A stretch of 64,000 bases of DNA, taken from contig SHZD01000005.1 of assembly GCA_009692465.1 (NCBI GenBank), forward strand, positions 689-64,688, in the 5' to 3' direction. Made by a program: the position numbers and the translations under genes. Positions 2,792 to 60,371 of the stretch are shown piece after piece (within the stretch, counting starts at the first letter, position 1; each line of letters begins with the position of its first letter). The notes beneath the pieces are model-generated. The model ran no database searches. It was not told the origin of the DNA and saw nothing but the letters and a program-made list of their open reading frames with translations. This stretch comes from Myxococcales bacterium. GTDB taxonomy: Bacteria; Myxococcota_A; UBA9042.

Positions 2792-5700
2792 CTAGTTCTC
2801 ATCCGCCCGCATACTGGGTCCGCCCAAAATTTTGTCCGGCGGCCCATAGCGAACCATGGCGATCGGACGCACCGCCGGCACTCCCGCGCCGGGCCACAGC
2901 CCCACAGTGGTGCCCGCAGTCAGGTAAATCCCGTCGTCGATTGGAAAATTGAGGGCGAACGCCGCCTCCAGCTTTTCGTCATTGCGATCGCCAAACGGCT
3001 TGAGCAACGGCGTCTCGTGGGTCAGCCCTAAGTCCATCCACACTCCGCTGGGCATCCACGGGTTTTTCCAATTGCCGCGCACCACGGTCGGATTGAGGCT
3101 GCCCGCCACGCTCCAGCGAAAGGCCGGGCCGTCGTCGACCGCAAAAGTAGAGCGAGTGGCCTGCAACCGTGCTGCCGCCGACATGGCAATGCGCCACGGC
3201 CCAAACTGCCCTGAAACCAACGCAGTCGGCGTAAACGTGGGTCCCGGGCGGCCCAGGTATTGCACCGGATCGCCGGCCGGAATGGTCGCCCACAGCATCG
3301 CCGCGTAGCCCCACTCGCCAATGCGGTCGGCACGAAACACATACTTGGCGGCAATGGCAATGTCGGCAATCGCCGGTTCGCTGGGCAGTGGTCCCGAGTC
3401 CGGGCCGAACAGACTGGGCCGCTGACCGACTTGCCACAAGCTGACCGGCACCACCACCCCCAACGTAAAGTGATCGAACACCCGCATCGCCAGTACCGCA
3501 TCGAACTGCATGCGACTTTCGACCAGCGGCCGCAGCACTTTGGACTCGGTGCCGACGACCAGTGGCCGCCACGCAATCTGGCCCTGACCGGCCACTGATA
3601 GCCCGTACAACTCCAGCTCGCGCGCCGACTCCGTTAGCGCGATGCCGGTCCCGTCCAACGTCGGCCGCCCGCTAGTGATATCGGGAGGCTGCAAGGCCAG
3701 CGCCGGAGCCGTTAGCGCCAGCAAGCTCGCAGCCGTCGCCACTACCGCGCGCGGCAACCGCCGTCGAACCACCACCAGCGCCACCAGCACCAGCAAGATC
3801 AACCAGTTGCTGCTGGTGCCGGGACTGGAAGCACTGGCACTGCAAGCAGACAGCGGCGAGGTCCCGCGCAAGTGGGCGCCCTGTTCCAAGGTGTCGAGGT
3901 CGTCGCTGGGATCCAAGGGGTTGGTGTTCAACTCCAGGATTTCAATGCCATCGTTCAGCCCACCGCCATCGGTATCGGGGTTGCGCGGATTGGTGCGATA
4001 CAGCAACACCTCGTCGCCGTCGGGCAACCGGTCGCCGTCACTGTCCGGGTCGCGGTAATCGGGCTTGCCATCGCCATCGGAGTCGAGCGGTTTTTGCAGC
4101 AATCCGGGTACGCTGCCGTTTTCCAACTGATCGGGCACTTGATCGTTGTCACTGTCAGGGTCCAAGGCGTCGATCAGCGTATCGCCATCCGTGTCGAGCG
4201 GCGCCACCGGATTTTGCACCTCGACATTGTCCCAAATGCCATCGGCGTCGGTATCGGCCTTGAGCGGGTCCAAGCCCAACTTGACTTCGATGGCATTGGC
4301 CAACGTATCACCGTCGAAGTCGCCGTCGTTGATGACGTCGTCGGCGGGGTTTTCGGGGTCTGTTTCGCCCTGATCGATGCGCCCATCATGGCTGAAATCC
4401 TCTTTGCCATCGGGCAGTCCGGCATGGTCCGAATCTGGCACTCGCGCCAGGGTGCGCGTCTGCGGATCCTTGTCGGCGATGAACACGTTAGACCCCAACG
4501 CGGTGTATTTCGGCAGCGGCAGCGTCAATTCGGTCAGGCCCAGCTCGGTGCCGTCAAACAAATCGTCACCGTCGGAGTCTTCGTCCAGCGCATCAATTAG
4601 GCCATCCCCGTCGCTATCAAATGCGAAATTGGCCTCGTTGCCGTCGGGCACGCCGTCGTCGTCGCTGTCGCCGTCGCTGATCTTGGTCCCGAGTAACTTT
4701 TCGCCGTCGTCACAAATGCCGTCACCGTCGCTGTCTGGCAGCGCGTTTTTCTTGTCGCCATCGCGCGGGTCGCCCTCATTGGCATCCACGTTGCCGTTGC
4801 GATTGACGTCTTCATAGCCGTCCGCTTGGCCGTCGCCGTCGGAGTCAGGGGCGCACGGAAACGAGCGCGACATCGATTGGGCATCCGGCCGATAAAAGCC
4901 TTTGGCTTCATTAGTTCCGGCTGAACCTGTGCCGGCTTCCACCGGCTTGACGACGCCCATTTCGGTGCCATCCGCCAAGCCGTCGTTGTCGCTGTCCGGG
5001 TCGAGCGCCCCCGGCAAGCCATCGCCATCACTGTCGAAAAGGGCGTTGGGCTCGGCGCCGTCGGCGACGCCATCGTCATCGCTGTCGCGGTCGGTGCTGC
5101 TGGTGCCCGCGCGCAGTTCTTCAAAGTCGCTCAGGCCATCGCCATCGGTGTCGGCAAATTTGGGTGTGCTCAGTGGATCTTCGGGGTCACTTTCGCCACT
5201 GTCGACCTTGCCGTTGCCGTTGAAGTCCTCCAGCCCCTCGCGAAAGCCGTCGCCATCGCTGTCGGCGCGCAGTGGACTGGTGGCGGTGGTCGGATCGGCA
5301 TCGGCGCTGAAGTTGCGACGCAACAGCCAAGTGGCTTTAGCAGTGGCGGCGACATTGCGCTCAGTGCCGTCGGACAGGCCGTCATTGTCGCTGTCGGCGT
5401 CGTTGCCGCACGGGGCGCCATCGCGATCGACGTCGAGACTGAAATTCCACTCGTTGCCATCGAAAATGCCGTCGTCATCACTGTCGGCGTCATAGGGATC
5501 GGTGCCAACCTCGTTCTCTTCGAAGTCGGGCAAACCGTCGCCATCGGCGTCGGCCAATGAACCGGACGAAGTCGACAGTGCTGGATTGGTTTCACCATCG
5601 GCAACCTGCAGTTTACCATCGTGATTCCAATCCTCAGCGCCGTCACGCACCCCATCACTGTCGGTGTCGGCAGCATCGGGGTTGGTGGTGGCACTAGGAT

Positions 5701-8700
5701 CGGCATCGGCCGCAAAGGCACGGCTCAACAAGTCGGTGTCGCTGTCGATCTTATCGGCGGTCTTGCCGGACTCCACGCTGTCCCACACGCCATCATTGTC
5801 GCGATCGGCGTCCAGCGCGCCGATCAGACCGTCGCCATCGCCATCGACCGGCGGTTCCTCGCCGTCGAGCAAGCCGTCATCGTCACTGTCCCGGTCTTTG
5901 GGTCCGGTGCCCAGTTCGACTTCTGGACCGTCCATCATGCCGTCGCCATCGCTGTCTGGCTGGGTGCGGTCGGTGCCGTACTTCTTCTCCGCGGCATCGG
6001 ACAGTTCATCGCCGTCGCTGTCTAAAGCGCGAAAATCGGCCTCGCCATTGCCATCGCTGTCTTTGGGCGCAGTCTTCCAGTCGGCATCGCCGGCTTCACT
6101 GGCGTCGTCCCAGCCGTCATCGTCACTGTCCAAGTCCTTGGCATCTTGCTTGCCGTCGCCGTCCGTGTCGACCGCTTGGCCACCTGGCGCCTCGTGACCA
6201 TCCGCAATGGTGTCGCCGTCACTGTCTGGATTCTTGGGATCCAAACCAATTTTAATTTCAACTGGATTCTTGAGCCCATCGCCGTCCAAATCGCCGCTGG
6301 TGTCATCGGCAGGGTCGAGCGGATTGGTGCCGTCTTGGGTTTCGACGCCATCGCCAGTGCCGCCCTTGTCGGTGTCGGCCTTGTTGGGGTCGGTCTCGCT
6401 GGCGTCGACAGCGCCGTTCTTGTTTTTGTCTTCGCCAGCGTCGAAAAGGCCGTCGCCATCGCTGTCTTTGGAAAGCGGATTGGTTTGGCTGGTGGGATCC
6501 TTGTCGCCGGTTTTGCCCAATTCCAAACCGTCGCCCAAGCCGTCACCGTCGCTGTCGGCCAAGCTGGGGTTGGTCTCGTTGCCGTCCACTTTGCCGTTTT
6601 TGCTGGCATCTTCGACGGCGTCGGTCAAGCCATCGCCATCGGTGTCCGCCGCTTTGGGGTTGGTGGTGGTGCTCGAATCGGCATCGCCCTTCTTGCCCAG
6701 CTCCAGACCGTCAGGCAAGCCGTCGCCATCAGTGTCCACCACCAACGGGTTGGTGCCATGGAAATTGACCTCCAGCCCATCCGAAACGCCATCGCCGTCG
6801 CTATCGGCTGCAGTCGGATCAGTTTCGCCTTTGGTTTTGTCCCACACCCCGTCTTTGTTGGCGTCTTCGCTGCCATCGGCTAGGCCATCGCTGTCGCTGT
6901 CGTCTTTCTTGGGGTTAGACTCGCCATTTTCGACGACGCCGTTCTTGTTCTTGTCCTCGACTCCATCGCTAATTCCATCGGCGTCTGAATCGGCGACATT
7001 GGGATCCGTACCTTGAAAATTAATGAACTTTCCACCGTATTTGGCGTTGACCTCGGTCTTGTCCAGCAACCCGTCACCGTCGCTGTCCTTGGCGCGCGGG
7101 TTGGTGGGGTTGGCGATCGGCAGGCCTTTGTCGTCCGGCTTTTTGACTTGATATTCGCCGATGTTCGTCAGGCCATCGCCGTCGCTATCCAGTCCAGCAT
7201 CGCTGCCGTCCAGGGGCAAAAGGGGCGGGCCTTCGCCAGCCTTGGCGGCATATTTGGATTCCCAGCCATCATCCATGCCGTCGGCATCGGTGTCTTTCTG
7301 GGTCGGATCGGTTTCGCCTAGCGCTGGCTCCCATTTGCCGTTGTGATTGAGGTCTTCCGCACCGTCTGCCAAGCCGTCGCCATCGCTGTCCAAGGTCAAC
7401 GGCGCCGACGTCGTCGCCGGATCGACATCGGCCTGAAACGCAATTTTAGTCGCCTGCGGGTCCTTGGCCGAAATCTGGACTTGGGTTTTGCCCAGTTCAA
7501 CGGCATCGCTGAGGCCATCGCCATCGGTGTCAAATAACAAGGGGCTGGTGCCACCTTCGATGGTAACCCCGGTCCCATCGGTCGCGATCCCGCCCTCGGA
7601 GCCATCCAAGATGCCGTCATCATCGGTGTCGGCATCTTTGGGGTTGGTGACCAACCGGTCTTTGAGCGCAAAAACCTCCTGGCCGTCGCCGATGCCGTCA
7701 CCGTCGCCGTCGCCGTCGTTGGCATTGGTTTTGCTGACCTCGGCTTCGTACTTGGTCGACAAGCCATCGCCGTCCAGATCCTTGCCGGTGTCGTCGGCTG
7801 CCACTTTGGGATCCGTGCCGTCGCTGACTTCGACCGGATCGAGCACGCCGCCGCCATCCGTATCCGCAATTAACGGGTTGATACCCAACTGCACTTCTTT
7901 GCCGTCGCTGAGCGAATCCCAATCGGTGTCCATCACCAATGGATTGGTTTTGTGCAGGTTAACTTCGGGGCCATCGGCCAGCCCATCGCCATCGGTGTCG
8001 GCCTTGAGCGGATCGGTGCCCACCGCTTTGCTCACTTCGCTGCCATCGCTCAGGCCATCGGCATCGGTATCAGCAACGTCGGGTTTGGTCTTGTAGACGG
8101 TCACTTCCTCGCCGTCGGCCAGACCGTCATCATCGGTGTCTTTGTCAAGGCGATCGGTGTTGTACACATTGACTTCTTTCCAGTCCGACAAGTTGTCGCC
8201 GTCGTTGTCCTTCTTGTCGTCGCTGGGATCGGTCGGATTGGTGCCGTCGATCAACACTTCGGCGCCGTCATCGGAAAACCCATTGTCGCTATCGACTTGC
8301 AGCGGATTGCTCTTGGTCACTTGCAATTCGACGTTATCGGGCAGGCCATCGCCATCGGTGTCGACCTTAACCGGCGAGGTCTTGAACTTGGTCACTTCGG
8401 CAAAGTCGGATAAAAAATCACCATCGGTGTCGGTCTTGAGCGGATTGGTGGCGGCGATACCAGCGACCGGTTCCAGCTCTTCTTTGTCCAAAAGTCCGTC
8501 GCTGTCGGTGTCTTTGAGCGTCGGATCGGTGCCAGCGGCCAATTCCTTGTCATTGGCCAGACCGTCGCCGTCCGGATCGCCGGTCGGTCCTTGACCCAAG
8601 TTGCCAAAGTAGCTGACTTCCCAGCCATCATCGAGGCCATCGGCGTCGGCATCTGCGGGCATCGCCCAACTAGTGGTAGCCCCACTTAGCGCCACTACGC

Positions 8701-8827
8701 AGAGCCAAGCCACCGCAACCAAGGCGCGGTGGCGGGAAAGTCGGTCCAAAGTCAGTTTATCAAGATCAGTACGCATGCCTGTATGGTGAACCGCAGCGAC
8801 CGCCGCAGCAAGTGTCAGCCAAGACAT
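2792..8827 (-). CDS. giant secreted calcium-binding repeat protein with about 45 TSP3-like repeats (DxDxDGxxDxxE), an internal MYXO-CTERM-like motif and a roughly 400-aa C-terminal domain
   Basis: A 2011-aa ORF with an N-terminal signal peptide (ALVAVAWLCVVALSGATTSWA) and about 1550 aa of DTDGDGLSDGxE-type aspartate repeats. Near aa 1600 comes LSACSASASSPGTSSNWLILLVLVALVVVRRRLPR (Cys-Ser, hydrophobic stretch, Arg cluster), followed in frame by a second hydrophobic segment and a 400-aa domain of unknown fold. The other five frames give only low-complexity junk ORFs. Confidence 0.85.
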   Translation of the reverse strand: MSWLTLAAAVAAVHHTGMRTDLDKLTLDRLSRHRALVAVAWLCVVALSGATTSWAMPADADADGLDDGWEVSYFGNLGQGPTGDPDGDGLANDKELAAGTDPTLKDTDSDGLLDKEELEPVAGIAATNPLKTDTDGDFLSDFAEVTKFKTSPVKVDTDGDGLPDNVELQVTKSNPLQVDSDNGFSDDGAEVLIDGTNPTDPSDDKKDNDGDNLSDWKEVNVYNTDRLDKDTDDDGLADGEEVTVYKTKPDVADTDADGLSDGSEVSKAVGTDPLKADTDGDGLADGPEVNLHKTNPLVMDTDWDSLSDGKEVQLGINPLIADTDGGGVLDPVEVSDGTDPKVAADDTGKDLDGDGLSTKYEAEVSKTNANDGDGDGDGIGDGQEVFALKDRLVTNPKDADTDDDGILDGSEGGIATDGTGVTIEGGTSPLLFDTDGDGLSDAVELGKTQVQISAKDPQATKIAFQADVDPATTSAPLTLDSDGDGLADGAEDLNHNGKWEPALGETDPTQKDTDADGMDDGWESKYAAKAGEGPPLLPLDGSDAGLDSDGDGLTNIGEYQVKKPDDKGLPIANPTNPRAKDSDGDGLLDKTEVNAKYGGKFINFQGTDPNVADSDADGISDGVEDKNKNGVVENGESNPKKDDSDSDGLADGSEDANKDGVWDKTKGETDPTAADSDGDGVSDGLEVNFHGTNPLVVDTDGDGLPDGLELGKKGDADSSTTTNPKAADTDGDGLTDAVEDASKNGKVDGNETNPSLADSDGDGLGDGLELGKTGDKDPTSQTNPLSKDSDGDGLFDAGEDKNKNGAVDASETDPNKADTDKGGTGDGVETQDGTNPLDPADDTSGDLDGDGLKNPVEIKIGLDPKNPDSDGDTIADGHEAPGGQAVDTDGDGKQDAKDLDSDDDGWDDASEAGDADWKTAPKDSDGNGEADFRALDSDGDELSDAAEKKYGTDRTQPDSDGDGMMDGPEVELGTGPKDRDSDDDGLLDGEEPPVDGDGDGLIGALDADRDNDGVWDSVESGKTADKIDSDTDLLSRAFAADADPSATTNPDAADTDSDGVRDGAEDWNHDGKLQVADGETNPALSTSSGSLADADGDGLPDFEENEVGTDPYDADSDDDGIFDGNEWNFSLDVDRDGAPCGNDADSDNDGLSDGTERNVAATAKATWLLRRNFSADADPTTATSPLRADSDGDGFREGLEDFNGNGKVDSGESDPEDPLSTPKFADTDGDGLSDFEELRAGTSSTDRDSDDDGVADGAEPNALFDSDGDGLPGALDPDSDNDGLADGTEMGVVKPVEAGTGSAGTNEAKGFYRPDAQSMSRSFPCAPDSDGDGQADGYEDVNRNGNVDANEGDPRDGDKKNALPDSDGDGICDDGEKLLGTKISDGDSDDDGVPDGNEANFAFDSDGDGLIDALDEDSDGDDLFDGTELGLTELTLPLPKYTALGSNVFIADKDPQTRTLARVPDSDHAGLPDGKEDFSHDGRIDQGETDPENPADDVINDGDFDGDTLANAIEVKLGLDPLKADTDADGIWDNVEVQNPVAPLDTDGDTLIDALDPDSDNDQVPDQLENGSVPGLLQKPLDSDGDGKPDYRDPDSDGDRLPDGDEVLLYRTNPRNPDTDGGGLNDGIEILELNTNPLDPSDDLDTLEQGAHLRGTSPLSACSASASSPGTSSNWLILLVLVALVVVRRRLPRAVVATAASLLALTAPALALQPPDITSGRPTLDGTGIALTESARELELYGLSVAGQGQIAWRPLVVGTESKVLRPLVESRMQFDAVLAMRVFDHFTLGVVVPVSLWQVGQRPSLFGPDSGPLPSEPAIADIAIAAKYVFRADRIGEWGYAAMLWATIPAGDPVQYLGRPGPTFTPTALVSGQFGPWRIAMSAAARLQATRSTFAVDDGPAFRWSVAGSLNPTVVRGNWKNPWMPSGVWMDLGLTHETPLLKPFGDRNDEKLEAAFALNFPIDDGIYLTAGTTVGLWPGAGVPAVRPIAMVRYGPPDKILGGPSMRADEN

Positions 8828-9102: not shown

Positions 9103-12100
9103 ATGGCGCGGACCATTCTTGCGCGCCGCGGTCGCCTCAATAGCGAACGCCGTCGAGGCTGCGTGCTGCATCGCGTTATTCCGCTTCTGCTGCTGCTTAC
9201 TGGTGCGACAGGCTTGCTGTACGAAGTCGTGTTGTCGCGGCTTTTGGCGCTGCATTTGGGGTCCTCAGGGTCCTCCCAGGCCATGATGCTGGCTACGTTT
9301 TTGGGCGGTATGGCCGCCGGTGCGTGGCTGGTTGAAAAGCCGTTGCGCAAGCTGGTCATCGCCCTGCCGCGGCCGCTGGTCGGGTATGCAGTGCTCGAAG
9401 GCTTCATTGGCGCTTGGGCGTTGGCGCTGCCAACGGTTTCGTACTATGCCTTTGATCTGTTTACCGAAGTGACCAAAGACCTGCCAACAGGCGGCGTGGC
9501 GGCGACGGCGGCCAAATTGACGCTGGCGGCGGCGCTGGCTCTGCCGCTGACCACGGCGATGGGCGCCACCTTGCCGGTATTGGCGGCGGGCGTGCAGCGC
9601 TTGGCTCCGGCCCACGGCGTGCAATTGGTGTCGCGCTACTACGTGCTCAACGCGCTCGGTGCAGCGATTGGCGCAGCGGTGACCGGTTTTGTCTTGATTG
9701 AAGAACTGGGCATCGTCCAGCCGCTCTATCTAGGCGCAGTGGTCAATGGCGCCGTCGCTGCGGTGGCGTGGCTGGTGTCGCTGCGGGCACCGGCGCCGCA
9801 ATTCCAGTCAGAATCACAGGCCCAGCCAGAATCACAGGCCCAGCCAGAATCACAGGCCCAGCCAGAATCACAGGCCCAGCCAGAATCACAGGCCCAGCCA
9901 GAATCACAGGCCCAGCCAGAATCACAGGCACAACTTGAACCCCAACCGCTGACTGAACCCCTTTCGGTGCCCGAGACCGGCTTGCAACGGGGCCGACCAG
10001 CGGTGACACCAGATCTGCTGGACATCGACGACAACCGCGACCCAAAGCTGGCGTCTACCACCGGTGATACCCCCAAGTCGTTGGTGCTGGCGGCCTTCGC
10101 CACGGGTCTGGTCTCGCTGTGCGCCGAAGTGTTGTGGACGCGAATTGCAGCGCTGGCGCTGGGCTCCTCGGTGTATTCGTTTGCGCTCATGCTCACCGTG
10201 GCCATTGCCGGCATCTCGCTGGGCAGCTGGCTGTCGGCGCGAGCGGTGCGCCATCGCGATCCGCAATGGGTGTTGGCGATTTCGCAAGCGGCGGCCGCGA
10301 CGGCGACAGCGCTGTTGATTTTGCGATTGGACGGCCTGCCGCAGGAGCTTGCGCAAATTCGGCTTGCTATCCATGCCCATCCGGACAACTACCCGGCGTG
10401 GCTGTGGCGTGGCAACCTGTATTTGGCGGCCCACTTGTTGCCCGCAGCAATGGCGCTCGGGGCCTCGTTTCCGGCGCTGTTGGCCAGTGCCCAGGCGCGC
10501 GGCGCGGCGATGGATCGGGCGACAGCGCGCATTTTGGCCGCCAATACGCTAGGCAACCTATGTGGAGCGCTGGGCGGCGGTTTTATCCTGATGCCGGCGT
10601 TGGGCATCGAGGGCTCGCTGTTGGTGACCTTCGTGATTTCACTGGCAGTGGCCCTACTGGTGTTGCCGCGGCCGTGGCAAGGTCACCAATTGCTGCCGGT
10701 GGCAGCGGTGGGGCTGGTGCTGACCCCGTTGCTGCTGGTGGCGTCACCCGATGGTTTTGTGCTGACCCGCGGCCTGTTTCGGTTGCGCGATACCAAGCCC
10801 GAAGACGTCGGCAAGTTCGTGCAGGCCCGTCGCAAGCAAATCCAGGTGCTTTTTCGCCGCGACGGCAAGGACGCCACCATCACCGTCGACAAGTTTCCGA
10901 CTGGCTTTTTGAATTTTCGCACCAACGGCAAGAGCGATGGCGGCACCGGCACCGACGTCATTACCCAAGTCATGCTCGGCCAACTCGGCTTGGTCCACCG
11001 CCCGGCCGCCACCAAGGCGTTCACCATCGGGCTGGGTACCGGCATGACCGCGGCGGCGCTGGCCAGCCACTCCAAAGTCAGCGTACACGTGGTCGAACTG
11101 AGCCCATCCGTTCTCGAAATTGCACCTATTTTCGTCAACTTTAACGGCAAAATCTGGGAGCATCCACGGGTGCACATCACCATCGCCGACGCCCGCGAGG
11201 TGTTGCGCACGCTGCCCGACGGCGAGTTGGACATTGTGGTATCCGAACCGAGCAACCCGTGGGTGGTCGGGGTGGCCGACTTGTTCACCGCTGATAGTTT
11301 TCAGCGCATTTCGCGAAAGCTAAAGCCCAACGGCGTGTTAGTTCAGTGGCTGCAGCACTATGAGCTGTCCGAACACGTCCTGCGCGCGATTTTTTGCACG
11401 CTGCACGGCACTTTTACCCACGTCAAAGTGTACCGCATGTCCTCGGGCGATTTGGCCCTGCTGGCCTCCAATGCCTCACTGGACCTCGATTTTGCGGCGG
11501 CAGCTCAGGCGCTGGCCGATCCGGGGGTGGTGGCCCACCGCACCCTGCTCGCCCGCGCCGATCTGCCGGCCTCGCTGGTGCAAGTGCTGGTAGGTCAACT
11601 GTGCGGCGACAAGACTTTGCGCCGAATGTGTAGGGATTTTGACCAGCCACTGTTGGAATTGCACCCCAAAGTCGAGTACTTAGCCCCGCGCGATTTTTTT
11701 GCACAAACGTCAGCCCGCAACCTGTCGGGCCGCTTGGACACCCGCCGCAGCGACGATCCCTTGGCAGTGGCGGACACCGATCTAGTGCGCTACTTGCACC
11801 AGTGGCCACTGGATGATCAAATCCGAGAACAGCTGCACACCTACCTGATTGAAGTCAATCATCCTTTTGACACAAGTTTGACCTCCGCAACGTCTGCGGA
11901 CGGCAAGTTGCCCAAGACGCTCAGAGCCAAGTTGCAGCAGTTGCCCGAACTGGCCAGTGCGTCGATCGCCCAAAAGGCCATCACTTGCGCGCTGTTACGC
12001 AAAGAGGCCACTTGGTTGATGGATTCACCGTACACCGTTTTGGGCCCAGCCAGCCGCGATCCGCTGGTGATGGCGTGGGTCCAAGCCTGTGAGGCCGCAC

Positions 12101-12105
12101 CATGA
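9103..12105 (+). CDS. fused polytopic membrane domain / spermidine synthase-like (aminopropyltransferase fold) protein, paralog 1
   Basis: N-terminus (LLLLTGATGLLYEVVLSRLLALHLGSS) is homologous to paralog 2. There are multiple TM helices, then a spermidine-synthase-like core (FTIGLGTGMTAAALASH...VVELSPSVLEIA...HPRVHITIADAREVL...DIVVSEPSNPWVVGVADLFTADSF). Start chosen at the ATG at 9103; the track ORF begins at 8875, but that upstream part is occupied by a dispersed repeat. The stop overlaps the next start (ATGA). Confidence 0.8.
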   Translation: MARTILARRGRLNSERRRGCVLHRVIPLLLLLTGATGLLYEVVLSRLLALHLGSSGSSQAMMLATFLGGMAAGAWLVEKPLRKLVIALPRPLVGYAVLEGFIGAWALALPTVSYYAFDLFTEVTKDLPTGGVAATAAKLTLAAALALPLTTAMGATLPVLAAGVQRLAPAHGVQLVSRYYVLNALGAAIGAAVTGFVLIEELGIVQPLYLGAVVNGAVAAVAWLVSLRAPAPQFQSESQAQPESQAQPESQAQPESQAQPESQAQPESQAQPESQAQLEPQPLTEPLSVPETGLQRGRPAVTPDLLDIDDNRDPKLASTTGDTPKSLVLAAFATGLVSLCAEVLWTRIAALALGSSVYSFALMLTVAIAGISLGSWLSARAVRHRDPQWVLAISQAAAATATALLILRLDGLPQELAQIRLAIHAHPDNYPAWLWRGNLYLAAHLLPAAMALGASFPALLASAQARGAAMDRATARILAANTLGNLCGALGGGFILMPALGIEGSLLVTFVISLAVALLVLPRPWQGHQLLPVAAVGLVLTPLLLVASPDGFVLTRGLFRLRDTKPEDVGKFVQARRKQIQVLFRRDGKDATITVDKFPTGFLNFRTNGKSDGGTGTDVITQVMLGQLGLVHRPAATKAFTIGLGTGMTAAALASHSKVSVHVVELSPSVLEIAPIFVNFNGKIWEHPRVHITIADAREVLRTLPDGELDIVVSEPSNPWVVGVADLFTADSFQRISRKLKPNGVLVQWLQHYELSEHVLRAIFCTLHGTFTHVKVYRMSSGDLALLASNASLDLDFAAAAQALADPGVVAHRTLLARADLPASLVQVLVGQLCGDKTLRRMCRDFDQPLLELHPKVEYLAPRDFFAQTSARNLSGRLDTRRSDDPLAVADTDLVRYLHQWPLDDQIREQLHTYLIEVNHPFDTSLTSATSADGKLPKTLRAKLQQLPELASASIAQKAITCALLRKEATWLMDSPYTVLGPASRDPLVMAWVQACEAAP
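9806..9931 (+). repeat. perfect 18-bp in-frame tandem repeat x7 (cagccagaatcacaggcc, encoding QPESQA) inside paralog 1
   Basis: Read directly from the sequence; encodes (ESQAQP)6-7. Paralog 2 has no such linker. Confidence 0.9.
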
Positions 12106-14903
12106 CGACCGCGCTCGCCAGCAGTCCCGTGGATCGGACGCTAAACCGTTTGATTCCAGCGTTGTTGCTGGCCACGGGCGCCACCGGTCTGGTCTATGAA
12201 GTCGCGCTGAGCCGCATGCTCAGCCTGTATCTAGGTTCGTCGGGCGCATCGCAGGCGATCACTTTGGCGACTTTTCTGGGCGGGATGGCGCTGGGCGCAG
12301 CGCTGGCCGGTCGGGCCCAGCGCGGGGTGCTGTCGCGATTGGGGCGGCCGTTGGTGGCCTACGCCATTCTCGAAGCGTTCATCGGCGGGTGGGCGCTGCT
12401 GTTGCCGACATTGACCGACGCGACGATGGGCACGCTACAGGTGTGGCTGACGGGCCGTGACGCCGGCGGCGCGGTGGCGCTGACCGTCAAGCTCGCCGCG
12501 TGTGCGGTGGTGGTGCTGCCGCTGACCGCCGCGATGGGGGCAACGCTGCCGGTGTTGTCGGCCAGCATTGACCGCTTGCAACCGGAGCGCGGCGTTCAAT
12601 TGGTGTCGCGGTACTACTGGCTCAACGCAGCGGGGGCGGCGACCGGCGCAGCGTTGGCTGGGTTTGTGCTGATCGAAGCGTGGGGCTTGGGCGAATCGCT
12701 GGCGGCAGGCGCGCTGGTCAATTTCGCGGTGGCCGCCATCGGTGGGTCGATCGCCAGCCGCCACCCGGCGCCGCCGCGAGTCGATAGCCCTGCCTCTAGC
12801 GAACACGGTTACGACGGCGCGCCGATCGCCAAGCTGGTTGCCGCGGCATTCTTGACGGGCCTAGTGGCTTTGCTGTGCGAGGTGCTGTGGACCCGTACGG
12901 CCGCCTTGTGGTTGGGCGCTTCGGTGCACGCTTTCGCCTTGATGTTGACAGTGACTATCGCCGGGATCGCGCTGGGCAGTGCGTTGGCGGCGCGGGCGAT
13001 CGGTAAAGGTGCGCGGCCAGAAGTGGTGCTGGTGGCCACCCAAGCCGGAGCGGGTCTGTGCGCGGTGGCGTTGGCGGCCCGCTTGGATGCGGCGGCCATG
13101 GACCTGTTGCTCGCCCGCCTAAAGCTAGTGCACGATCCAGATAACTATGGTTTGTGGCTGGTGGTTTCCTCGACTCTGGTGGCGCTGCACCTGCTGCCAG
13201 CGGGGCTGTGTCTGGGCGCAGCCTTTCCGGCGTTGTTGGCAGCGGCGCGGCGTCAGGGGGCGCGCATCGATCGGGCGACCGCGCACCTGCTGTCCGCTAA
13301 CACGCTGGGCAATCTATTGGGTGCCCTGGCCGGCGGCTTTGTGGTCATGCCGACTTTGGGCTTGGACGGAGCCTATTTGGCGGCAGGCGCCGCGTCGTTT
13401 GGGGTCGCAGCCTTGGTGGCCCCCAAACCGTGGACGCGGATGGGCACCGCCCCGATTGCGCTACTGGCGGCGTTGGCCGTGCTGATCGCGCTGCAGTTTC
13501 CCCATCGCGATCAAGCGCTGACCAAAGGCCTGTTTCGCTTGCATGCCCCGCCTGGCCGCATCGATCCGGGAGCGCGACTGTGGGCCACGGTGGCCGGCGA
13601 AGTGGTGTTGCGGCGCGACGGCAAAGACGTTACGGTGACCGTGGAGCGCTTCGCCGGCAATCACTTGATTTACGCCACCAACGGCAAACCAGAAGGCGGC
13701 AGCGGCGACGTTCCGACCCAATTGCTGCTCGGCGTCGATGGTTATTTGGCCGTACCACATGCCAAAGACGTGCTGGTCATCGGCTTGGGCACCGGCCAGA
13801 GCGCGGCGGCGGTGGCGGCCAAAGCGGACGTGCAGGTGCACGTGGTGGAATTATCGGCGCCGGTGCTCGATGCCGCGGCCTTGTTCAAGGATCTCAACGA
13901 CGACGTGCTGCACAACCCGCGGGTGCGGGTGACGATCGCCGACGCCCGCGAGATCTTGCGCTCGTTGCCGCCCGCGAGCTTGGACTTGGTGGTCAGCGAG
14001 CCGAGCAATCCATGGGTGGCCGGTGTCGCCGACCTGTTCACGGTGGAGGCTTTTGAGCGCGTGGCGTCGCGACTGCGGCCCAAAGGCGCGCTAGTCCAGT
14101 GGATTCAACGCTATGAAATGAGCGACCCCACTTTTCGCTCGATCTTGTGCAGCCTGCACAGCGTGATGCCGCACGTCGCGCTGTTTCGGACCATGCCCGG
14201 CGATTTGATAGTGATTGCCAGCAAGACGCCACTCGATTCGCCGCTGGCTGCCGCCCAGGCCACCTTTGCGGCGCCGGACCTTGCGGGCTATTTGAGCCGA
14301 CGCAAAGGCGATTATGTGCCGCAGGACTTTGCGCAGTTGCTAGTCAACCAGCTGTGCGGCTCGGCTACGGTGGCGCAATTTTGCCGTGGTTTTGGCCAGC
14401 CATTTTCCGAAAAGCGACCGCAGTTGGAGTTTTCGGCCCCGCGCGACCTCTTTGCCCATGCCGACGCCACCGCGACGCAGCGCTTGTTGGATACGCGCAC
14501 CACCAAGCACGGCGATACGTGGCTGGCGCAGTGGCTGCTCGATCACCCGCTCGATGCGGCCGGCAAGCGCGCACTGCAACAGTATTTGGAGCGCAGCACC
14601 CACAGTGGCGACGCGGCGTTGCAGTTGGCGCTGGCACAGAACTTGCCAGCGCCGGTCAGCGCGACGGTGGCGGCCTTGCCGGCGGTGCCGTTGGCTGATG
14701 CCAAAGAGGCGGCGCCGTGGTGCGCATGGCTGCTGGCCGGGGTGCCCCAGCTGATCGAGGCCCAGATCACCATTGTCGGCCCGGTGTTGCCCGATGCCAA
14801 AGCCCAGGCGTGGATCGACCGGTGCACCCTCCCCGATATCGCCAACGCCCACCGCGGCGCCGGTTTTGCCCTGCCCGGCCGCGCCTTCGTTCCAGCGCGA
14901 TGA
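12102..14903 (+). CDS. fused polytopic membrane domain / spermidine synthase-like protein, paralog 2
   Basis: Same architecture as paralog 1 (LLLATGATGLVYEVALSRMLSLYLGSS ... VLVIGLGTGQSAAAVAAKADVQVHVVELSAPVLDAA ... NPRVRVTIADAREILRSL ... DLVVSEPSNPWVAGVADLFTVEAF). ATGA start/stop overlaps at both ends. Confidence 0.85.
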   Translation: MTTALASSPVDRTLNRLIPALLLATGATGLVYEVALSRMLSLYLGSSGASQAITLATFLGGMALGAALAGRAQRGVLSRLGRPLVAYAILEAFIGGWALLLPTLTDATMGTLQVWLTGRDAGGAVALTVKLAACAVVVLPLTAAMGATLPVLSASIDRLQPERGVQLVSRYYWLNAAGAATGAALAGFVLIEAWGLGESLAAGALVNFAVAAIGGSIASRHPAPPRVDSPASSEHGYDGAPIAKLVAAAFLTGLVALLCEVLWTRTAALWLGASVHAFALMLTVTIAGIALGSALAARAIGKGARPEVVLVATQAGAGLCAVALAARLDAAAMDLLLARLKLVHDPDNYGLWLVVSSTLVALHLLPAGLCLGAAFPALLAAARRQGARIDRATAHLLSANTLGNLLGALAGGFVVMPTLGLDGAYLAAGAASFGVAALVAPKPWTRMGTAPIALLAALAVLIALQFPHRDQALTKGLFRLHAPPGRIDPGARLWATVAGEVVLRRDGKDVTVTVERFAGNHLIYATNGKPEGGSGDVPTQLLLGVDGYLAVPHAKDVLVIGLGTGQSAAAVAAKADVQVHVVELSAPVLDAAALFKDLNDDVLHNPRVRVTIADAREILRSLPPASLDLVVSEPSNPWVAGVADLFTVEAFERVASRLRPKGALVQWIQRYEMSDPTFRSILCSLHSVMPHVALFRTMPGDLIVIASKTPLDSPLAAAQATFAAPDLAGYLSRRKGDYVPQDFAQLLVNQLCGSATVAQFCRGFGQPFSEKRPQLEFSAPRDLFAHADATATQRLLDTRTTKHGDTWLAQWLLDHPLDAAGKRALQQYLERSTHSGDAALQLALAQNLPAPVSATVAALPAVPLADAKEAAPWCAWLLAGVPQLIEAQITIVGPVLPDAKAQAWIDRCTLPDIANAHRGAGFALPGRAFVPAR

Positions 14904-16558
14904 AGACCGTCGACGTCCAGTTGCCAGCCGTTCATGGCGGCCCGGCACCCGAAGTCGATCCCCAATTGAGGGCGGTAGTGGCGGCGGCGTTGGGCATTTC
15001 GCTAGCGGAATTGGGCGTTTGCTGTGTGCGCCGTCGTTCGCTCGACGTCCGCCGCCGCCATCGACCGCAGTGGGTGCTGCGCGTGGACGCCTATACAGTC
15101 GCTCAGACTCCTATGGACGACAGCCTGCCGCCGCTGATTCGCCCGCAGCGGTTGGCTAAGACGGTCGGCGATCTGCGGCCGGTGATCGTCGGTATGGGCC
15201 CGGCCGGCTTGTTCGCCGCACTCGCTTTTGCCGACGCCGGAGTGCGCTGCACCGTGCTCGATCGCGGTGAGGCCGTCGAGCCGCGCAGTCTCAAAGTGCG
15301 CGATTTGCGTGGTAAAGGCCTCTTGGATCCCGAGTCCAACTTGTGCTTTGGCGAAGGTGGTGCCGGCACCTACTCCGACGGCAAGCTGTTCACCCGCAGC
15401 AAGCACCCGTGGGTGCGTCAGGTGTATGAGCGGTTGGTTATGCTCGGTGCCGATCGCGACATTTTGGTCGCCGCCCACCCGCACGTCGGCAGCAACTACC
15501 TAATTCGAATGATGAAAGCCTTGAGAGCCGCCCTACTGGAGGCCGGCCACGACCTGCGCTTTGGACGGCGGGTCGACGATCTGGTGCTGGACCACCGGGG
15601 CTCGGCACCTCAAGTCGTGGGCGTGCGCTGCGACGACGGCAGCGAACTACTAGATAGTCCTGTCATTTTGGCGGCGGGCCACTCCGCACGCGACACCTAC
15701 GCGATGCTGGCGCGGCACGGGGTGCACATGCAGCGCAAGGATTTTGCGATTGGCGCCCGAGTCGAACATCCGCAGGCGTTGGTCGACGTTATCCAGTTGG
15801 GCGATCTGGCCGGCGACGATACCATTGGCGCGGCCGAGTACTACTTGCAACAGACGGTCGCTTCCGGTCGCGGTACTTACTCGTTTTGCATGTGCCCGGG
15901 TGGCCAAGTGTTGCCGACCTCGACGGCGCTGGGCTGTCTAAACGTCAACGGGATGTCCAATTCGGGCCGCGGCTCGGGGTTTGCCAACGCGGCGTGGGTG
16001 GCACAGGTGCCGGCCCACGAGTTTTTCAACCAGCGTCCGGGTGACCTCGACGACGATGCGCAGTTTGGGCTGCAGGTGGCGGGCGGGGCCTTGCTCGGTC
16101 TCGCACTGCAAACCCGCTTGGAACAAGCCTGTTTCGCTGCCGGTGGCGGCGACCATGTTGCCCCAGCCCAGCGCCTGACCGATTTTGTCCACGGTCGGGC
16201 CTCGGCCGACCTGCCCGATCGTTACACCTATCGGCCAGGCTTGCGTCTGGGTCGCCTCGACCAGTTGTTACCTAGGCGGCTGGTGGCCGATTTGCAGCAA
16301 GGCGCGCGCCAAGTGGAGGCCAAGCAAATGCGCGGTTGGCTGGCCCGCGACGCCGTCATCCAAGGGGTGGAAACCACGACCAGCTCGCCCGTTCGCATCG
16401 TGCGCGGCAGCGATCGGCAGAGTGTTTCGCACCTAGGCCTGTATCCATGCGCGGAGGGCGCGGGCTACGCCGGAGGCATCGTGTCGTCCGCGATCGACGG
16501 GTTGGAGGCGGCTCGCGCAGTCTTGGCGGCGGCAGGCCTGTTGGCAGCCGACGGCTAG
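14900..16558 (+). CDS. FAD-dependent dehydrogenase (COG2509-like NAD(P)/FAD-dependent oxidoreductase)
   Basis: Rossmann dinucleotide-binding start (VIVGMGPAGLFAALAFADAG), TYSDGKLFTRS and FCMCPGG motifs. The ATG at 14900 (MKTVDVQLP...) overlaps the upstream stop as ATGA. The track ORF begins at 14717 but is GC-frame read-through. Confidence 0.75.
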   Translation: MKTVDVQLPAVHGGPAPEVDPQLRAVVAAALGISLAELGVCCVRRRSLDVRRRHRPQWVLRVDAYTVAQTPMDDSLPPLIRPQRLAKTVGDLRPVIVGMGPAGLFAALAFADAGVRCTVLDRGEAVEPRSLKVRDLRGKGLLDPESNLCFGEGGAGTYSDGKLFTRSKHPWVRQVYERLVMLGADRDILVAAHPHVGSNYLIRMMKALRAALLEAGHDLRFGRRVDDLVLDHRGSAPQVVGVRCDDGSELLDSPVILAAGHSARDTYAMLARHGVHMQRKDFAIGARVEHPQALVDVIQLGDLAGDDTIGAAEYYLQQTVASGRGTYSFCMCPGGQVLPTSTALGCLNVNGMSNSGRGSGFANAAWVAQVPAHEFFNQRPGDLDDDAQFGLQVAGGALLGLALQTRLEQACFAAGGGDHVAPAQRLTDFVHGRASADLPDRYTYRPGLRLGRLDQLLPRRLVADLQQGARQVEAKQMRGWLARDAVIQGVETTTSSPVRIVRGSDRQSVSHLGLYPCAEGAGYAGGIVSSAIDGLEAARAVLAAAGLLAADG

Positions 16559-16582: not shown

Positions 16583-17974
16583 CTAAGTGGTCTTACGCCG
16601 CTGCCGTTCGGTTCCCGTTGCAATATCAAGCAGTTGCGGCGCCCGCTCACGCACAACTTGCAAGTAGAACTCCGCGGTTTGCAGGGGCGGCAGCTCCTCT
16701 TGCTCACATTGCTGTTCCAGCCACAGTTGAATCCGCCCCAGCCACGGTCCCGCTTGCAGGCCGGTCTGGGCCAAGATGAGGCTCCCCAAGCCCTTGGGCA
16801 GCGGCGGCACCTTGGCATTTTGTTCCACGATGTCAGCGACATGGCCGGCAAGTTGCGTAGTCAGCGTCTTGACTTCCGCTTGGCGACTCGAGCGCTTGGT
16901 GGTGTAGTCTGAGCGCGAAAACGCCAGCACGTCGTCCAAATGCTCGCCCATATCACGGACCAATCGGCGCACCGCACTGTCTGTCCAATTGGCCAAATAA
17001 GCGTTGGCGCGGGCGTGGTGGCCGATCACGTACACAATCCGGTCGCGCACCGCAGGCGGCATGTGAAAGCGCCCAGCCACCCCTTCCATCAGCGACGCCC
17101 CTAGCGCTTCGTGGCCAAAAAAGTGTACCCGCCCCTTCTGCACGGTACGCGTTTGCACTTTGCCGGTGTCGTGCATCAGCGCCGACCACCGCACGACCAA
17201 GCTGTGCGGGCATTTTTCAATGACCTGCAAAGTGTGGTCCCAGATGTCCTTGTGGTGTACGGGGCACGATTTGTGAAAATCGACCAGCGCGGTCACTTCG
17301 GGCACCAGCAACTGCAACACCCCGGCCTGCTGCAAGAAACGCAGCCCCACGGAAGCACGCGGCCCAAGCAACACTGCGCCCAGACCGTCCTGCCAGCACT
17401 GACGGTCCAGTTGCAGGATCAGCACCGCATCGCGCTGCAAGGCCCGCACGATATCGCGATCGGGGTACAATCCCGTGTGGGCCGCGATCGCCGCTACCTG
17501 CAGTGCGCCGCTCAGATCACCGCGCCACAACGCCCTTGGGTCACCGCTCACCCGCAACAGGCCATCGCGCCAGTCTTTTTCGGCGCCGTAGGGGTCGACA
17601 ATTTGACCATTGGCTAGCACCGCGACGGCCAACGCCCGCAGATGGGTGCGCTCAAGCTCGGCGGTTAGCTCGGCAGCCAGTGCATCGGAAAACACAAGAT
17701 GCGGTGGTGCTTTACAAATCTCAACACCAGCTACTTGGACGGCGGCATCGGCACTTGCGGCAACTACTGCGCGCTGCACCTGCAACCCACCGGCCCATTG
17801 CACCAGCGGATCGCGCAGCGGCTGGTCGGCAGCCAACTGCGGTTCAAAGGCTGCGAGGGCCGCCGGTAGGCCCACCAGCGCCGCGCCGGCAAACTGCAGG
17901 TCAAGGTCGCGTAACCACTGAGCAACCGCCACAGGTGAGCGCATCGATTCGGCAACGGGGAGTGCTAATGGCAT
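16583..17974 (-). CDS. cca: CCA tRNA nucleotidyltransferase / poly(A) polymerase family protein with HD phosphohydrolase domain
   Basis: Class-II NTase neck/body motifs (IVDPYGAEKDWRDGLLRVSGDPRALWRGDLSGALQVAAIAA) and an HD domain (HHKDIWDHTLQV ... ALMHDTGK). The head-domain GG...DxD region appears divergent. Confidence 0.6.
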   Translation of the reverse strand: MPLALPVAESMRSPVAVAQWLRDLDLQFAGAALVGLPAALAAFEPQLAADQPLRDPLVQWAGGLQVQRAVVAASADAAVQVAGVEICKAPPHLVFSDALAAELTAELERTHLRALAVAVLANGQIVDPYGAEKDWRDGLLRVSGDPRALWRGDLSGALQVAAIAAHTGLYPDRDIVRALQRDAVLILQLDRQCWQDGLGAVLLGPRASVGLRFLQQAGVLQLLVPEVTALVDFHKSCPVHHKDIWDHTLQVIEKCPHSLVVRWSALMHDTGKVQTRTVQKGRVHFFGHEALGASLMEGVAGRFHMPPAVRDRIVYVIGHHARANAYLANWTDSAVRRLVRDMGEHLDDVLAFSRSDYTTKRSSRQAEVKTLTTQLAGHVADIVEQNAKVPPLPKGLGSLILAQTGLQAGPWLGRIQLWLEQQCEQEELPPLQTAEFYLQVVRERAPQLLDIATGTERQRRKTT

Positions 17975-19219: not shown

Positions 19220-19915
19220 TCAGTCGCGCCAACACTTCATGGTAAACAGCGTGTACGGGATCCGGTAGCCGTCATGGCGCAGCGTGGTCTCGATGCGGGC
19301 AAACCGCCGGCGCGCTAGGGTCAGGTATTGCTCGGGCGTGCGGACATGCCGCCCCCGATCGCGGCCAATGATCCAGCGGGCCAGCCGCGACTGTTCTGGA
19401 ACCGAAGCATTGTCGTAGGTCAGCAAAAAGCCACCAGGTTTGCATTGCTGCCACGCGGTATCGACCAACTGCTCGGCCTGGGCATCGTCCAAGTGGTGCA
19501 AGATCGCGTTGGCCATCACCGCATCGCAGCCGGCAGTGGCAACCGGGGTGGCGTCGACGTGGCGGGCAAAAAACTGGGCGCGGTGGCCAAAAGTGGCCTG
19601 AGCGTGAGCGATGTAGCGGGGGTTCATGTCAAAGCCAACGTAGCGCACCCCGACTGGCAAGAAGGGCAGCATGGTACCCGGCCCACATCCGATATCGAGA
19701 ATCGTCATATCCGCGCGGGGTTGTAACAGGGTGTCGATGTACCAGCGGCGATAAGCGTCGCCACCAATCAAGGTCTGAAAGGCGTCATACGCTTGCGGCA
19801 ACGTCAACAGACGGCGCAGGCCACTGTCGTCATGGGCGACGTGCGAACTGGCGGCGGTATCCGGTGGGGGCATGGTTCCTCGGTGTTCGCGCAGACACCT
19901 GAGCAGCGTAGCCAA
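19220..19915 (-). CDS. class I SAM-dependent methyltransferase
   Basis: Motif I ILDIGCGPG and post-I acidic residue pattern. The start may be the internal Met near 19873. Confidence 0.7.
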   Translation of the reverse strand: MATLLRCLREHRGTMPPPDTAASSHVAHDDSGLRRLLTLPQAYDAFQTLIGGDAYRRWYIDTLLQPRADMTILDIGCGPGTMLPFLPVGVRYVGFDMNPRYIAHAQATFGHRAQFFARHVDATPVATAGCDAVMANAILHHLDDAQAEQLVDTAWQQCKPGGFLLTYDNASVPEQSRLARWIIGRDRGRHVRTPEQYLTLARRRFARIETTLRHDGYRIPYTLFTMKCWRD

Positions 19916-60274: not shown

Positions 60275-60371
60275 GGGCTCCGAAGCAGGTTGCTGCTGCT
60301 GGGCGTCAAGGATCGTAAGGCGTTGAATACTCGATTTCAGGCTAACGGATTGGGTTAGCGCGGCTAGGATG

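Follow-up and report, generated by a model that had tools for sequence, protein, structure and literature searches.

What do the bacterial proteins catalogued as fused spermidine synthases make, and on which side of the membrane do they make it? The question is raised by three adjacent genes at 9103-16558 of a 64-kb stretch (hereafter the window, 64,000 nucleotides of contig SHZD01000005.1) from an uncultured Myxococcales metagenome-assembled genome (MAG). Two of these open reading frames (ORFs), ORF1 and ORF2, encode large proteins in which a membrane domain of the major facilitator superfamily (MFS) fold precedes a domain with the fold of the spermidine synthase SpeE; ORF3 encodes a flavoprotein. 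We find that the fused proteins are very probably not canonical spermidine synthases and belong instead to the family NF037959 with an active site of its own. As an account of their function we favour, with a probability of roughly 0.45, the alkylation (probably methylation) of an amine in the periplasm with S-adenosylmethionine (SAM), the MFS domain bringing in either SAM or the acceptor. The three genes are as follows.

9103-12105, + strand: ORF1, fused MFS/SpeE-like protein of M type (motif GLGTGMTA), the conserved orthologue; 1000 amino acids (aa) from ATG 9103, or 980 aa from GTG 9163
12102-14903, + strand: ORF2, second fused MFS/SpeE-like protein of 933 aa, an old extra paralogue found only in the window lineage and L001/L002
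14900-16558, + strand: ORF3, COG2509 / FAD-depend_C flavoprotein of 552 aa (PF21688, 182.6 bits)

Architecture and active site

Each fused protein is composed of four parts, a 12-helix MFS fold, a 13th transmembrane (TM) helix, a spermidine-synthase-fold domain and a helical tail, which were mapped on ORF2.

12138-13415, + strand: residues ~13-438, MFS-fold domain of 12 helices in 6+6 pseudo-symmetry; R38, E91, E260 and R265 are conserved and embedded in the membrane
13437-13496, + strand: residues 446-465, 13th TM helix (Kyte-Doolittle hydropathy 2.08), which takes the chain across the membrane
13596-14231, + strand: residues ~499-710, SpeE-fold domain with NGK (528-529), TQ (539-540), GLGTG (561-565), E583, D614, SEPSNPW (632-638) and QW..Y (666-671)
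14232-14900, + strand: residues 711-933, helical C-terminal tail with invariant C761, C874 and C908 (C683 lies in the enzyme domain)

An AlphaFold2 model of ORF2 built on 67 aligned homologues (predicted local distance difference test, pLDDT, 92.9; predicted template-modelling score, pTM, 0.92) was of high confidence along its whole length and confirmed a membrane domain followed by a SpeE-like domain. Both subdomains of the SpeE fold are present, an N-terminal beta-hairpin subdomain and a Rossmann-like domain, and Foldseek matched the domain to SpeE structures with TM-scores of 0.65-0.70; the tail (711-933) matched no known fold. A first-pass annotation of this DNA had read a multi-TM domain, a spermidine-synthase fold and a long C-terminal extension from the letters, and all three are there. 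Its count of about 12 helices holds for the complete MFS fold and falls one short of the total of 13. The alignment of ORF1 with ORF2 spans both proteins completely, also through the C-terminal extensions, with 45-57% identity.

Both proteins exceed the curated cut-off of the NCBIfam model NF037959, 'fused MFS/spermidine synthase' (104.4 bits for ORF1 and 61.2 for ORF2; cut-off 40), a name that relatives bear in NCBI records; the family is thus catalogued and uncharacterised. Of the 480 positions of the model about 270 precede the enzyme domain. In the window proteins its membrane part is matched two times over, with three matching stretches in total, and the 13th helix and a 220-aa Cys-bearing tail come in addition. 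They score far below the cut-off of TIGR00417 speE (46.5 and 35.4 bits against 249.55) and reach 60.8 and 49.7 bits against PRK00811 (cut-off 260), 108.2 and 95.2 bits against PRK03612 (cut-off 472) and, weakly, 44 and 32 bits against PF01564 (Spermine_synth). The family is large, with at least 600 genome matches to the SEPSNPW pattern and 1,521 clusters at 50% identity (E <= 1e-30), and its phyla include Myxococcota, Bacteroidota, Verrucomicrobiota, Acidobacteriota, Nitrospirota and Planctomycetota; the best 80 genome loci come nearly all from MAGs labelled as diderm phyla. Most relatives carry tetratricopeptide repeat (TPR) tails. Full-text literature searches turned up nothing on membrane-bound or MFS-fused spermidine synthases, in agreement with the earlier statement that the function of this family is not established.

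To map the active site, both ORFs and the family profile were aligned to solved SpeE structures (for example PDB 6QMM, 1INL and 2O06), with the following correspondences.

Canonical LDGxxQ: NGKxD in the window family, with a new invariant Lys529
Canonical Tyr79-Gln80: Thr539-Gln540, the Gln kept
Canonical GGGDG: GLGTG in both ORFs (GLGTGM in ORF1, GLGTGQ in ORF2), GLG(T/S)G family-wide
Ribose-binding Glu124: kept as E583
Adenine-binding Asp of GDG (D155): kept as D614, in ADA
Catalytic Asp173: Glu633
Putrescine-anchoring Asp176: Asn636

In both copies GxG(D/E)G lacks its acidic residue, by which decarboxylated SAM (dcSAM) is bound through its aminopropyl amine and SAM itself is kept out; SpeE requires this acid to bind dcSAM (PMC10349129). 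The canonical set of D173, D176 and Tyr79 is present in neither ORF1 nor ORF2. Wu et al. are said to have described, in 2007, the roles of these three residues, with D173 as the catalytic one and D176 as the one that holds the distal putrescine amine. The aminopropyltransferase chemistry proposed by the first-pass annotation, which looked to conserved dcSAM-binding and catalytic Asp residues, accordingly finds those residues replaced in both copies: Thr stands for the dcSAM-selecting Asp, Glu for the catalytic Asp, Asn for the putrescine Asp and Thr for Tyr79.

The replacements are themselves strongly conserved. Among 67 aligned sequences, which take in TPR-tailed relatives from other phyla at about 30% identity, G561, G565, E583, D614, D628, S632, P634, N636, P637, W638, Q666, W667 and Y671 never vary, and E633 hardly does. 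In a motif scan with 120 matches listed, EPSNP or EPTNP occurred in 106/120 and GxG(T/S)G in 96/120. Judged by its residues, this is no decayed enzyme: the active site is of another kind, strongly conserved, and appears still to bind an adenosyl cofactor. Gone are the acid by which dcSAM is chosen over SAM and the residues that place the diamine. Because these are gone and the adenosine contacts are kept, the enzyme domain is read here as something other than a spermidine synthase. In the alignment the family differs from canonical SpeE and SpdS in every substrate-specific residue: to the GLG(T/S)G, Glu, Asn and Thr substitutions it adds the extra invariant K529, W638 and Q666-W667, the fusion to 13 TM helices, a predicted periplasmic location and scores below the speE cut-offs. 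The name NF037959 implies spermidine synthase activity, which the active-site residues of the window proteins do not support.

The same comparison bears on the idea that these are membrane-bound dcSAM aminopropyltransferases whose product is a polyamine or an aminopropylated lipid and which share a pathway of their own with the flavin adenine dinucleotide (FAD)-dependent dehydrogenase. SpeE is the nearest characterised family both by sequence (E 1e-22 and 70-83 bits for the family profile against PDB) and by fold, down to the beta-hairpin subdomain; Gln80, Glu124 and the GDG Asp are kept, and Glu633 puts an acid at the catalytic position. Set against this are the Thr or Ser that replaces the GxG(D/E)G acid in 96/120 of the matches listed, the changes of Asp176 to Asn and Tyr79 to Thr, and the distance from the speE cut-off. 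We consider such an activity unlikely, also in view of the gene neighbourhoods described below.

Topology of the fused proteins

The 12 TM helices of the membrane domain form two homologous six-helix bundles, as in the MFS fold, although neither ORF1 nor ORF2 matched Pfam MFS_1 (PF07690) at E <= 0.01; some relatives carry PF07690 in the precomputed Pfam annotation. Both termini of the MFS fold are cytoplasmic. Because the single helix TM13 then follows, and because the positive-inside count agrees (family-wide, 12.5 Lys and Arg on the N-terminus/even-loop, cytoplasmic, side versus 1.9 on the other), the catalytic domain and the Cys-bearing tail should, on this prediction, lie in the periplasm. 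Three further features are consistent with a periplasmic enzyme domain. Loops on the periplasmic side are short, and their conservation exceeds that of the cytoplasmic loops (0.57 versus 0.44). Exactly four Cys are invariant in the clade (C683, C761, C874 and C908), and they lie far apart in the chain with no CxxC pattern. A subgroup of short-tailed relatives (P0146, P0152, P0183 and P0217) has another, non-TPR tail with a conserved Cys...Cys pair at its end, as would suit an oxidising compartment outside the cytoplasm.

If this topology were wrong, the enzyme would be cytoplasmic and the MFS-like domain an anchor or a lipid-presenting module, with a lipid head group or another substrate methylated or alkylated at the inner leaflet by means of cytoplasmic SAM. 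To our knowledge all bacterial class I SAM enzymes act where SAM is, in the cytoplasm, and the SAM-contact residues of the family are invariant. We nevertheless regard a cytoplasmic enzyme as quite improbable. The cytoplasmic MFS termini and the charge count speak against it, as do the widely spaced invariant Cys, and TM13 is one very hydrophobic helix (family median hydropathy 2.12) that comes after helix 12 and a 7-residue loop, usually with no TM-like segment downstream.

Signal-anchored or soluble versions of the enzyme domain were also looked for. The short matches look like truncated gene calls, and the single context examined is split or frameshifted: at L089 (2882-5767) one ORF of 363 aa covers the MFS part and stops just past helix 12, and a second one of 588 aa, 27 nt away, covers helix 13, the SpeE-like domain and TPRs; either the gene is split by nature or the assembly contains a frameshift. 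PRK03612, the model of a short membrane-bound 'polyamine aminopropyltransferase' (522 positions), aligns to ORF1 residues 25-228, that is, to one six-helix half of the MFS domain. By analogy, proteins of this type, which we take to have the canonical SpeE residues, would have 6+1 helices and so a SpeE domain outside the membrane as well.

Cofactor, supply and acceptor

A precedent for a membrane-bound enzyme of this kind is the fungal NHMT (AN4663), which consists of a 7-TM domain, a beta-sheet region, an SpdS-like Rossmann domain and a helical extension (PMC10349129). It is auto-annotated as a spermidine synthase, has Ile (I322) in place of the GxG(D/E)G acid, and was identified by experiment as a SAM methyltransferase of His1 on secreted lytic polysaccharide monooxygenases (LPMOs); it resides in the endoplasmic reticulum (ER), requires its TM domain for activity, and its catalytic part is called an ectodomain (PMC10349129). 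We rebuilt the 558-aa NHMT sequence from the supplement of that paper, correcting slips of optical character recognition, and aligned its residues 234-450 to the family enzyme domain with hhalign (probability 96.5%, E 8e-10). The two catalytic domains have GLGxGxT, VE(I/L)xP, DAR and LFT.EF in common, and the proteins are alike in having a multi-helix membrane domain with an odd number of TM helices, an SpdS-like domain without the acid, a helical extension and a mistaken annotation as spermidine synthase. They differ in their TM domains, which do not align (hhalign aligns the catalytic domain only), and in the motif after strand 4, which is HDVFTGG in NHMT (the conserved segment 389-394 read as lying within it) and SEPSNPW in the window family. 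NHMT is therefore no member of the family, though it may serve as a remote model of its mode of action.

NHMT and the C-domain of human METTL13 act on protein N-termini; both are SpdS-like, lack the acid and use SAM. By analogy with these two, the enzyme domain would use SAM rather than dcSAM and alkylate an amine nitrogen, most likely by methylation. Glu633 would here take the place after strand 4 that is filled by Asp or Asn in SpeE and in N-directed class I methyltransferases, and the predicted topology would put the reaction on the periplasmic side. The MFS domain may bring the fused enzyme domain one of its two substrates, SAM or the acceptor, from across the membrane, as cationic-amine antiporters and putative Golgi SAM carriers would suggest. 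A candidate target is an amine carried by some exported component of the envelope, perhaps the N-termini of proteins; exported proteins or polymers are candidates because NHMT and the METTL13 C-domain act on N-termini and most relatives have TPR tails.

The membrane domain itself is most similar in structure to cationic-amine and drug antiporters and may be likened to the MFS cation/amine antiporters VMAT2, VAChT and NorA. Among the 67 sequences R38 and E91 are invariant and E260 and R265 nearly invariant, all of them membrane-embedded, and mean column identity is 0.60 in the MFS domain versus 0.62 in the enzyme domain. From ordinary MFS transporters the window proteins differ by the fused, probably extracytoplasmic, enzyme domain. 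These properties would also suit a protein that is primarily an MFS transporter, its SpeE-derived periplasmic domain serving as a non-catalytic module for ligand binding or gating (for example of adenosyl compounds or polyamines), like a fused substrate-binding protein or sensor. A genuine MFS fold conserved as well as the enzyme domain, genes that stand alone without pathway partners, and a predicted periplasmic side to which we know of no SAM supply all fit that view. On the other hand, we know of no fused SpeE-fold binding domain, and conservation extends beyond the adenosine contacts to the acceptor and catalytic positions (S632, E633, P634, N636, P637 and W638), as is more typical of catalysis. 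NHMT, the precedent, is catalytically active (PMC10349129). A solely transporting role therefore strikes us as quite unlikely.

A narrower version of the SAM-dependent alkylation favoured here is that the MFS domain exports SAM to the fused periplasmic SpdS-like domain, making the protein a self-supplying extracytoplasmic alkyltransferase that N-methylates envelope proteins or polymers. Plant Golgi SAM transporters (GoSAMT), which feed methylation inside the Golgi, have been sought among MFS members (bioRxiv 10.1101/2021.07.06.451061). Taken in all its parts, this version is rather doubtful; if true, it would describe the first SAM-dependent enzyme known in the bacterial periplasm, a bacterial counterpart of NHMT and a Golgi-type SAM transporter in one polypeptide.

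Several observations weigh against SAM-dependent alkylation in the periplasm. We know of no SAM pool and no SAM-dependent enzyme in the bacterial periplasm. Biochemical or genetic data were found for no family member. The family profile gives NHMT 15.7 bits versus 70-83 bits for true SpeE, and it did not find METTL13 at E <= 0.1. The acid at the catalytic position, Glu633, leaves room for aminopropyl or aminocarboxypropyl transfer. In one relative (P0032, L005 6015-10778) the fused gene closes what looks like an operon, after genes for an AdoMet decarboxylase (PF02675) and a TP_0789-like protein and a 110-aa ORF; this hints at dcSAM use. No conserved neighbour points to a substrate: when crude ORF calls from 88 loci were clustered, the largest neighbour cluster besides the fused gene was a ~510-aa family in 13 loci (its one annotated member is a PAS/histidine-kinase/receiver protein), and none of the others occurred in more than 7 of the 88 loci.

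The family, then, is already catalogued, under a misleading name; what would be new is the reading of its members as possible periplasmic SAM-dependent enzymes with their own transporter. At least 1,500 clusters (50% identity) in many diderm phyla are named 'spermidine synthase' or 'fused MFS/spermidine synthase', and metabolic reconstructions that use the family name would wrongly predict polyamine synthesis, because the active site is not that of a spermidine synthase. If the topology is right, a SAM-binding catalytic domain lies outside the cytoplasmic membrane, fused to its own transporter, which raises the question of periplasmic SAM-dependent modification in bacteria. It is this family-level reading that is of interest; the two paralogues and the flavoprotein neighbour in the window are ordinary and of local interest only.

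Neighbouring genes, paralogues and repeat

ORF1, ORF2 and ORF3 lie head-to-tail on the same strand. Stop and start codons overlap as ATGA at 12102-12105 (ORF1/ORF2) and 14900-14903 (ORF2/ORF3), both junctions having been read directly in the sequence, and a promoter and terminator scan found no terminator-like site between the three genes. The arrangement is that of a translationally coupled operon, judging by its stop/start overlaps, and the overlaps bear out the tight coupling, FAD-dependent dehydrogenase included, that had been noted before. The counterpart junctions in L001 overlap by 4 bp and 1 bp. The start of ORF1 is ambiguous, six orthologues beginning with MLHRLIPLL, which corresponds to GTG 9163 and a protein of 980 aa. 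An exact look-up in the protein collection found neither the 1000-aa nor the 980-aa form, so the annotated start differs from both. ORF2 is identical to NCBI MSQ81522.1 ('methyltransferase domain-containing protein') and ORF3 to MSQ81523.1 (hypothetical protein).

ORF3 is a cytoplasmic COG2509 flavoprotein, well above the PF21688 cut-off of 27 bits, with FAD-binding motif matches at residues 95-126; over residues 92-542 it matches PDB 3NLC (E 1.9e-99), which is the uncharacterised VP0956 of Vibrio parahaemolyticus. Literature on COG2509 yielded nothing relevant, its mentions being passing ones in unrelated papers. A COG2509 gene adjoins the fused gene in six loci only, the window, L001, L002, L008, L086 and L087, all of ORF1 type, and there the link is tight, with overlaps or 10-bp gaps. 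A tblastn search with ORF3 against 85 loci with up to 10 kb of flank found none in the ~80 other family loci; five further contexts (L003, L005, L088 and two known from precomputed Pfam annotation alone) have no flavoprotein neighbour either. In L008, L086 and L087 both genes belong to a syntenic block. MetH comes first and a ~2000-aa CglD-like gene on the opposite strand second; after these stand the fused gene, its COG2509 neighbour and a gene with an HD domain, and further along dnaN and recF.

The tight linkage in six loci and the AdoMet decarboxylase next to the L005 relative could both be cited for aminopropyl transfer in a dedicated pathway. The adjacency of the flavoprotein carries little weight, because the entire neighbourhood is syntenic where it is present (MetH, the CglD-like gene, the HD-domain gene and dnaN), and the gene is absent near the ~80 other loci; the AdoMet decarboxylase is a single case among 85 loci by tblastn. 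No polyamine genes occur in the 64-kb window, and a cytoplasmic flavoprotein is hard to square with a partner predicted to be periplasmic. The earlier proposal of a dedicated pathway with the flavoprotein is thus not upheld, and of the co-occurrence that it invited one to look for, the synteny in six related loci is real and does not extend to the rest of the family. The linkage of the flavoprotein to the ORF1-type genes points to co-transcription in one narrow myxobacterial lineage, not to a shared pathway. A general link of fused genes to COG2509 was ruled out, tblastn placing ORF3 in the ORF1-type lineage only. Linkage to AdoMet decarboxylase was likewise set aside, as it is not seen in sister contexts.

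The history of the two fused genes also differs from what had been assumed. In a neighbour-joining (NJ) tree the ORF2 clade branches outside a group made up of ORF1-type genes and many unlinked single-copy genes, and ORF1 is 54% identical to unlinked single-copy genes elsewhere versus 47% to ORF2. Its orthologues P0017, P0026 and the L008 gene share 68-75% identity with it and hold the same syntenic position. L008, L086 and L087 have an ORF1-type gene with the flavoprotein gene, one fused gene only and no ORF2; in the window and L001/L002 an extra ORF2-type gene stands between the fused gene and the flavoprotein gene, with stop/start overlaps. Between the window and L001 lineages the three genes have diverged equally, with identities of 70-75% for ORF1, 70% for ORF2 and 74% for ORF3. 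From the tree, the identities and this equal divergence, ORF1 and ORF2 appear to be an old pair of paralogues, both evolving at similar rates. A recent tandem duplication is ruled out by the tree, the identity matrix and the three loci with ORF1 and the FAD gene without ORF2. ORF1, which the first-pass annotation took for the diverging copy, is the conserved orthologue. Decay of ORF2 was also ruled out, by its 70% identity across lineages and the presence of all invariant residues. A third family member, P0018 (EXR77_10355; 854 aa, 50% identical to ORF2), lies on another contig of the same MAG. It has the same locus-tag prefix (EXR77) as ORF3, so the genome has at least three paralogues.

ORF1 contains one further feature.

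9804-9929, + strand: 18-bp tandem repeat in 7 copies (Tandem Repeats Finder, TRF, and direct reading), placed by topology analysis in the central loop, a cytoplasmic one, that joins MFS helices 6 and 7

TRF reports 7.0 copies of the 18-bp unit with 99% matches. Read base by base, five copies are perfect and the two edge copies have one mismatch each, and the encoded peptide is QSESQA followed by (QPESQA)6. The earlier description of a (QPESQA)7 linker from a perfect 18-bp repeat is therefore right about the seven units and wrong about their perfection. The central loop has 100 aa in ORF1 versus 27-37 aa in orthologues, and the repeat looks like neutral slippage in a variable linker.

The window is core chromosome, with rpoB/rpoC, tuf and a tRNA cluster, proS, pyrF and sugar-nucleotide genes. 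Divergent from ORF1, a 2011-aa protein with bacterial TSP3 repeats (2792-8827, - strand) matches the model of CglD, an adventurous gliding motility lipoprotein, with 562 bits; a ~2000-aa gene has the same position in L008, L086 and L087. Converging on ORF3 with a 24-bp gap is the gene of a 463-aa HD-domain protein (16583-17974, - strand) that resembles CCA-adding enzymes (136 bits, cut-off 438.8) and is syntenic in relatives. A 217-aa class I methyltransferase (19220-19873, - strand) is encoded a short way downstream of the operon, and L086 and L087 have a similar gene in the same place. At 55691-63980 (- strand) two adjacent giant proteins of 1574 and 1202 aa are encoded, the only Pfam match being a short Met-zincin (DUF4953) motif.

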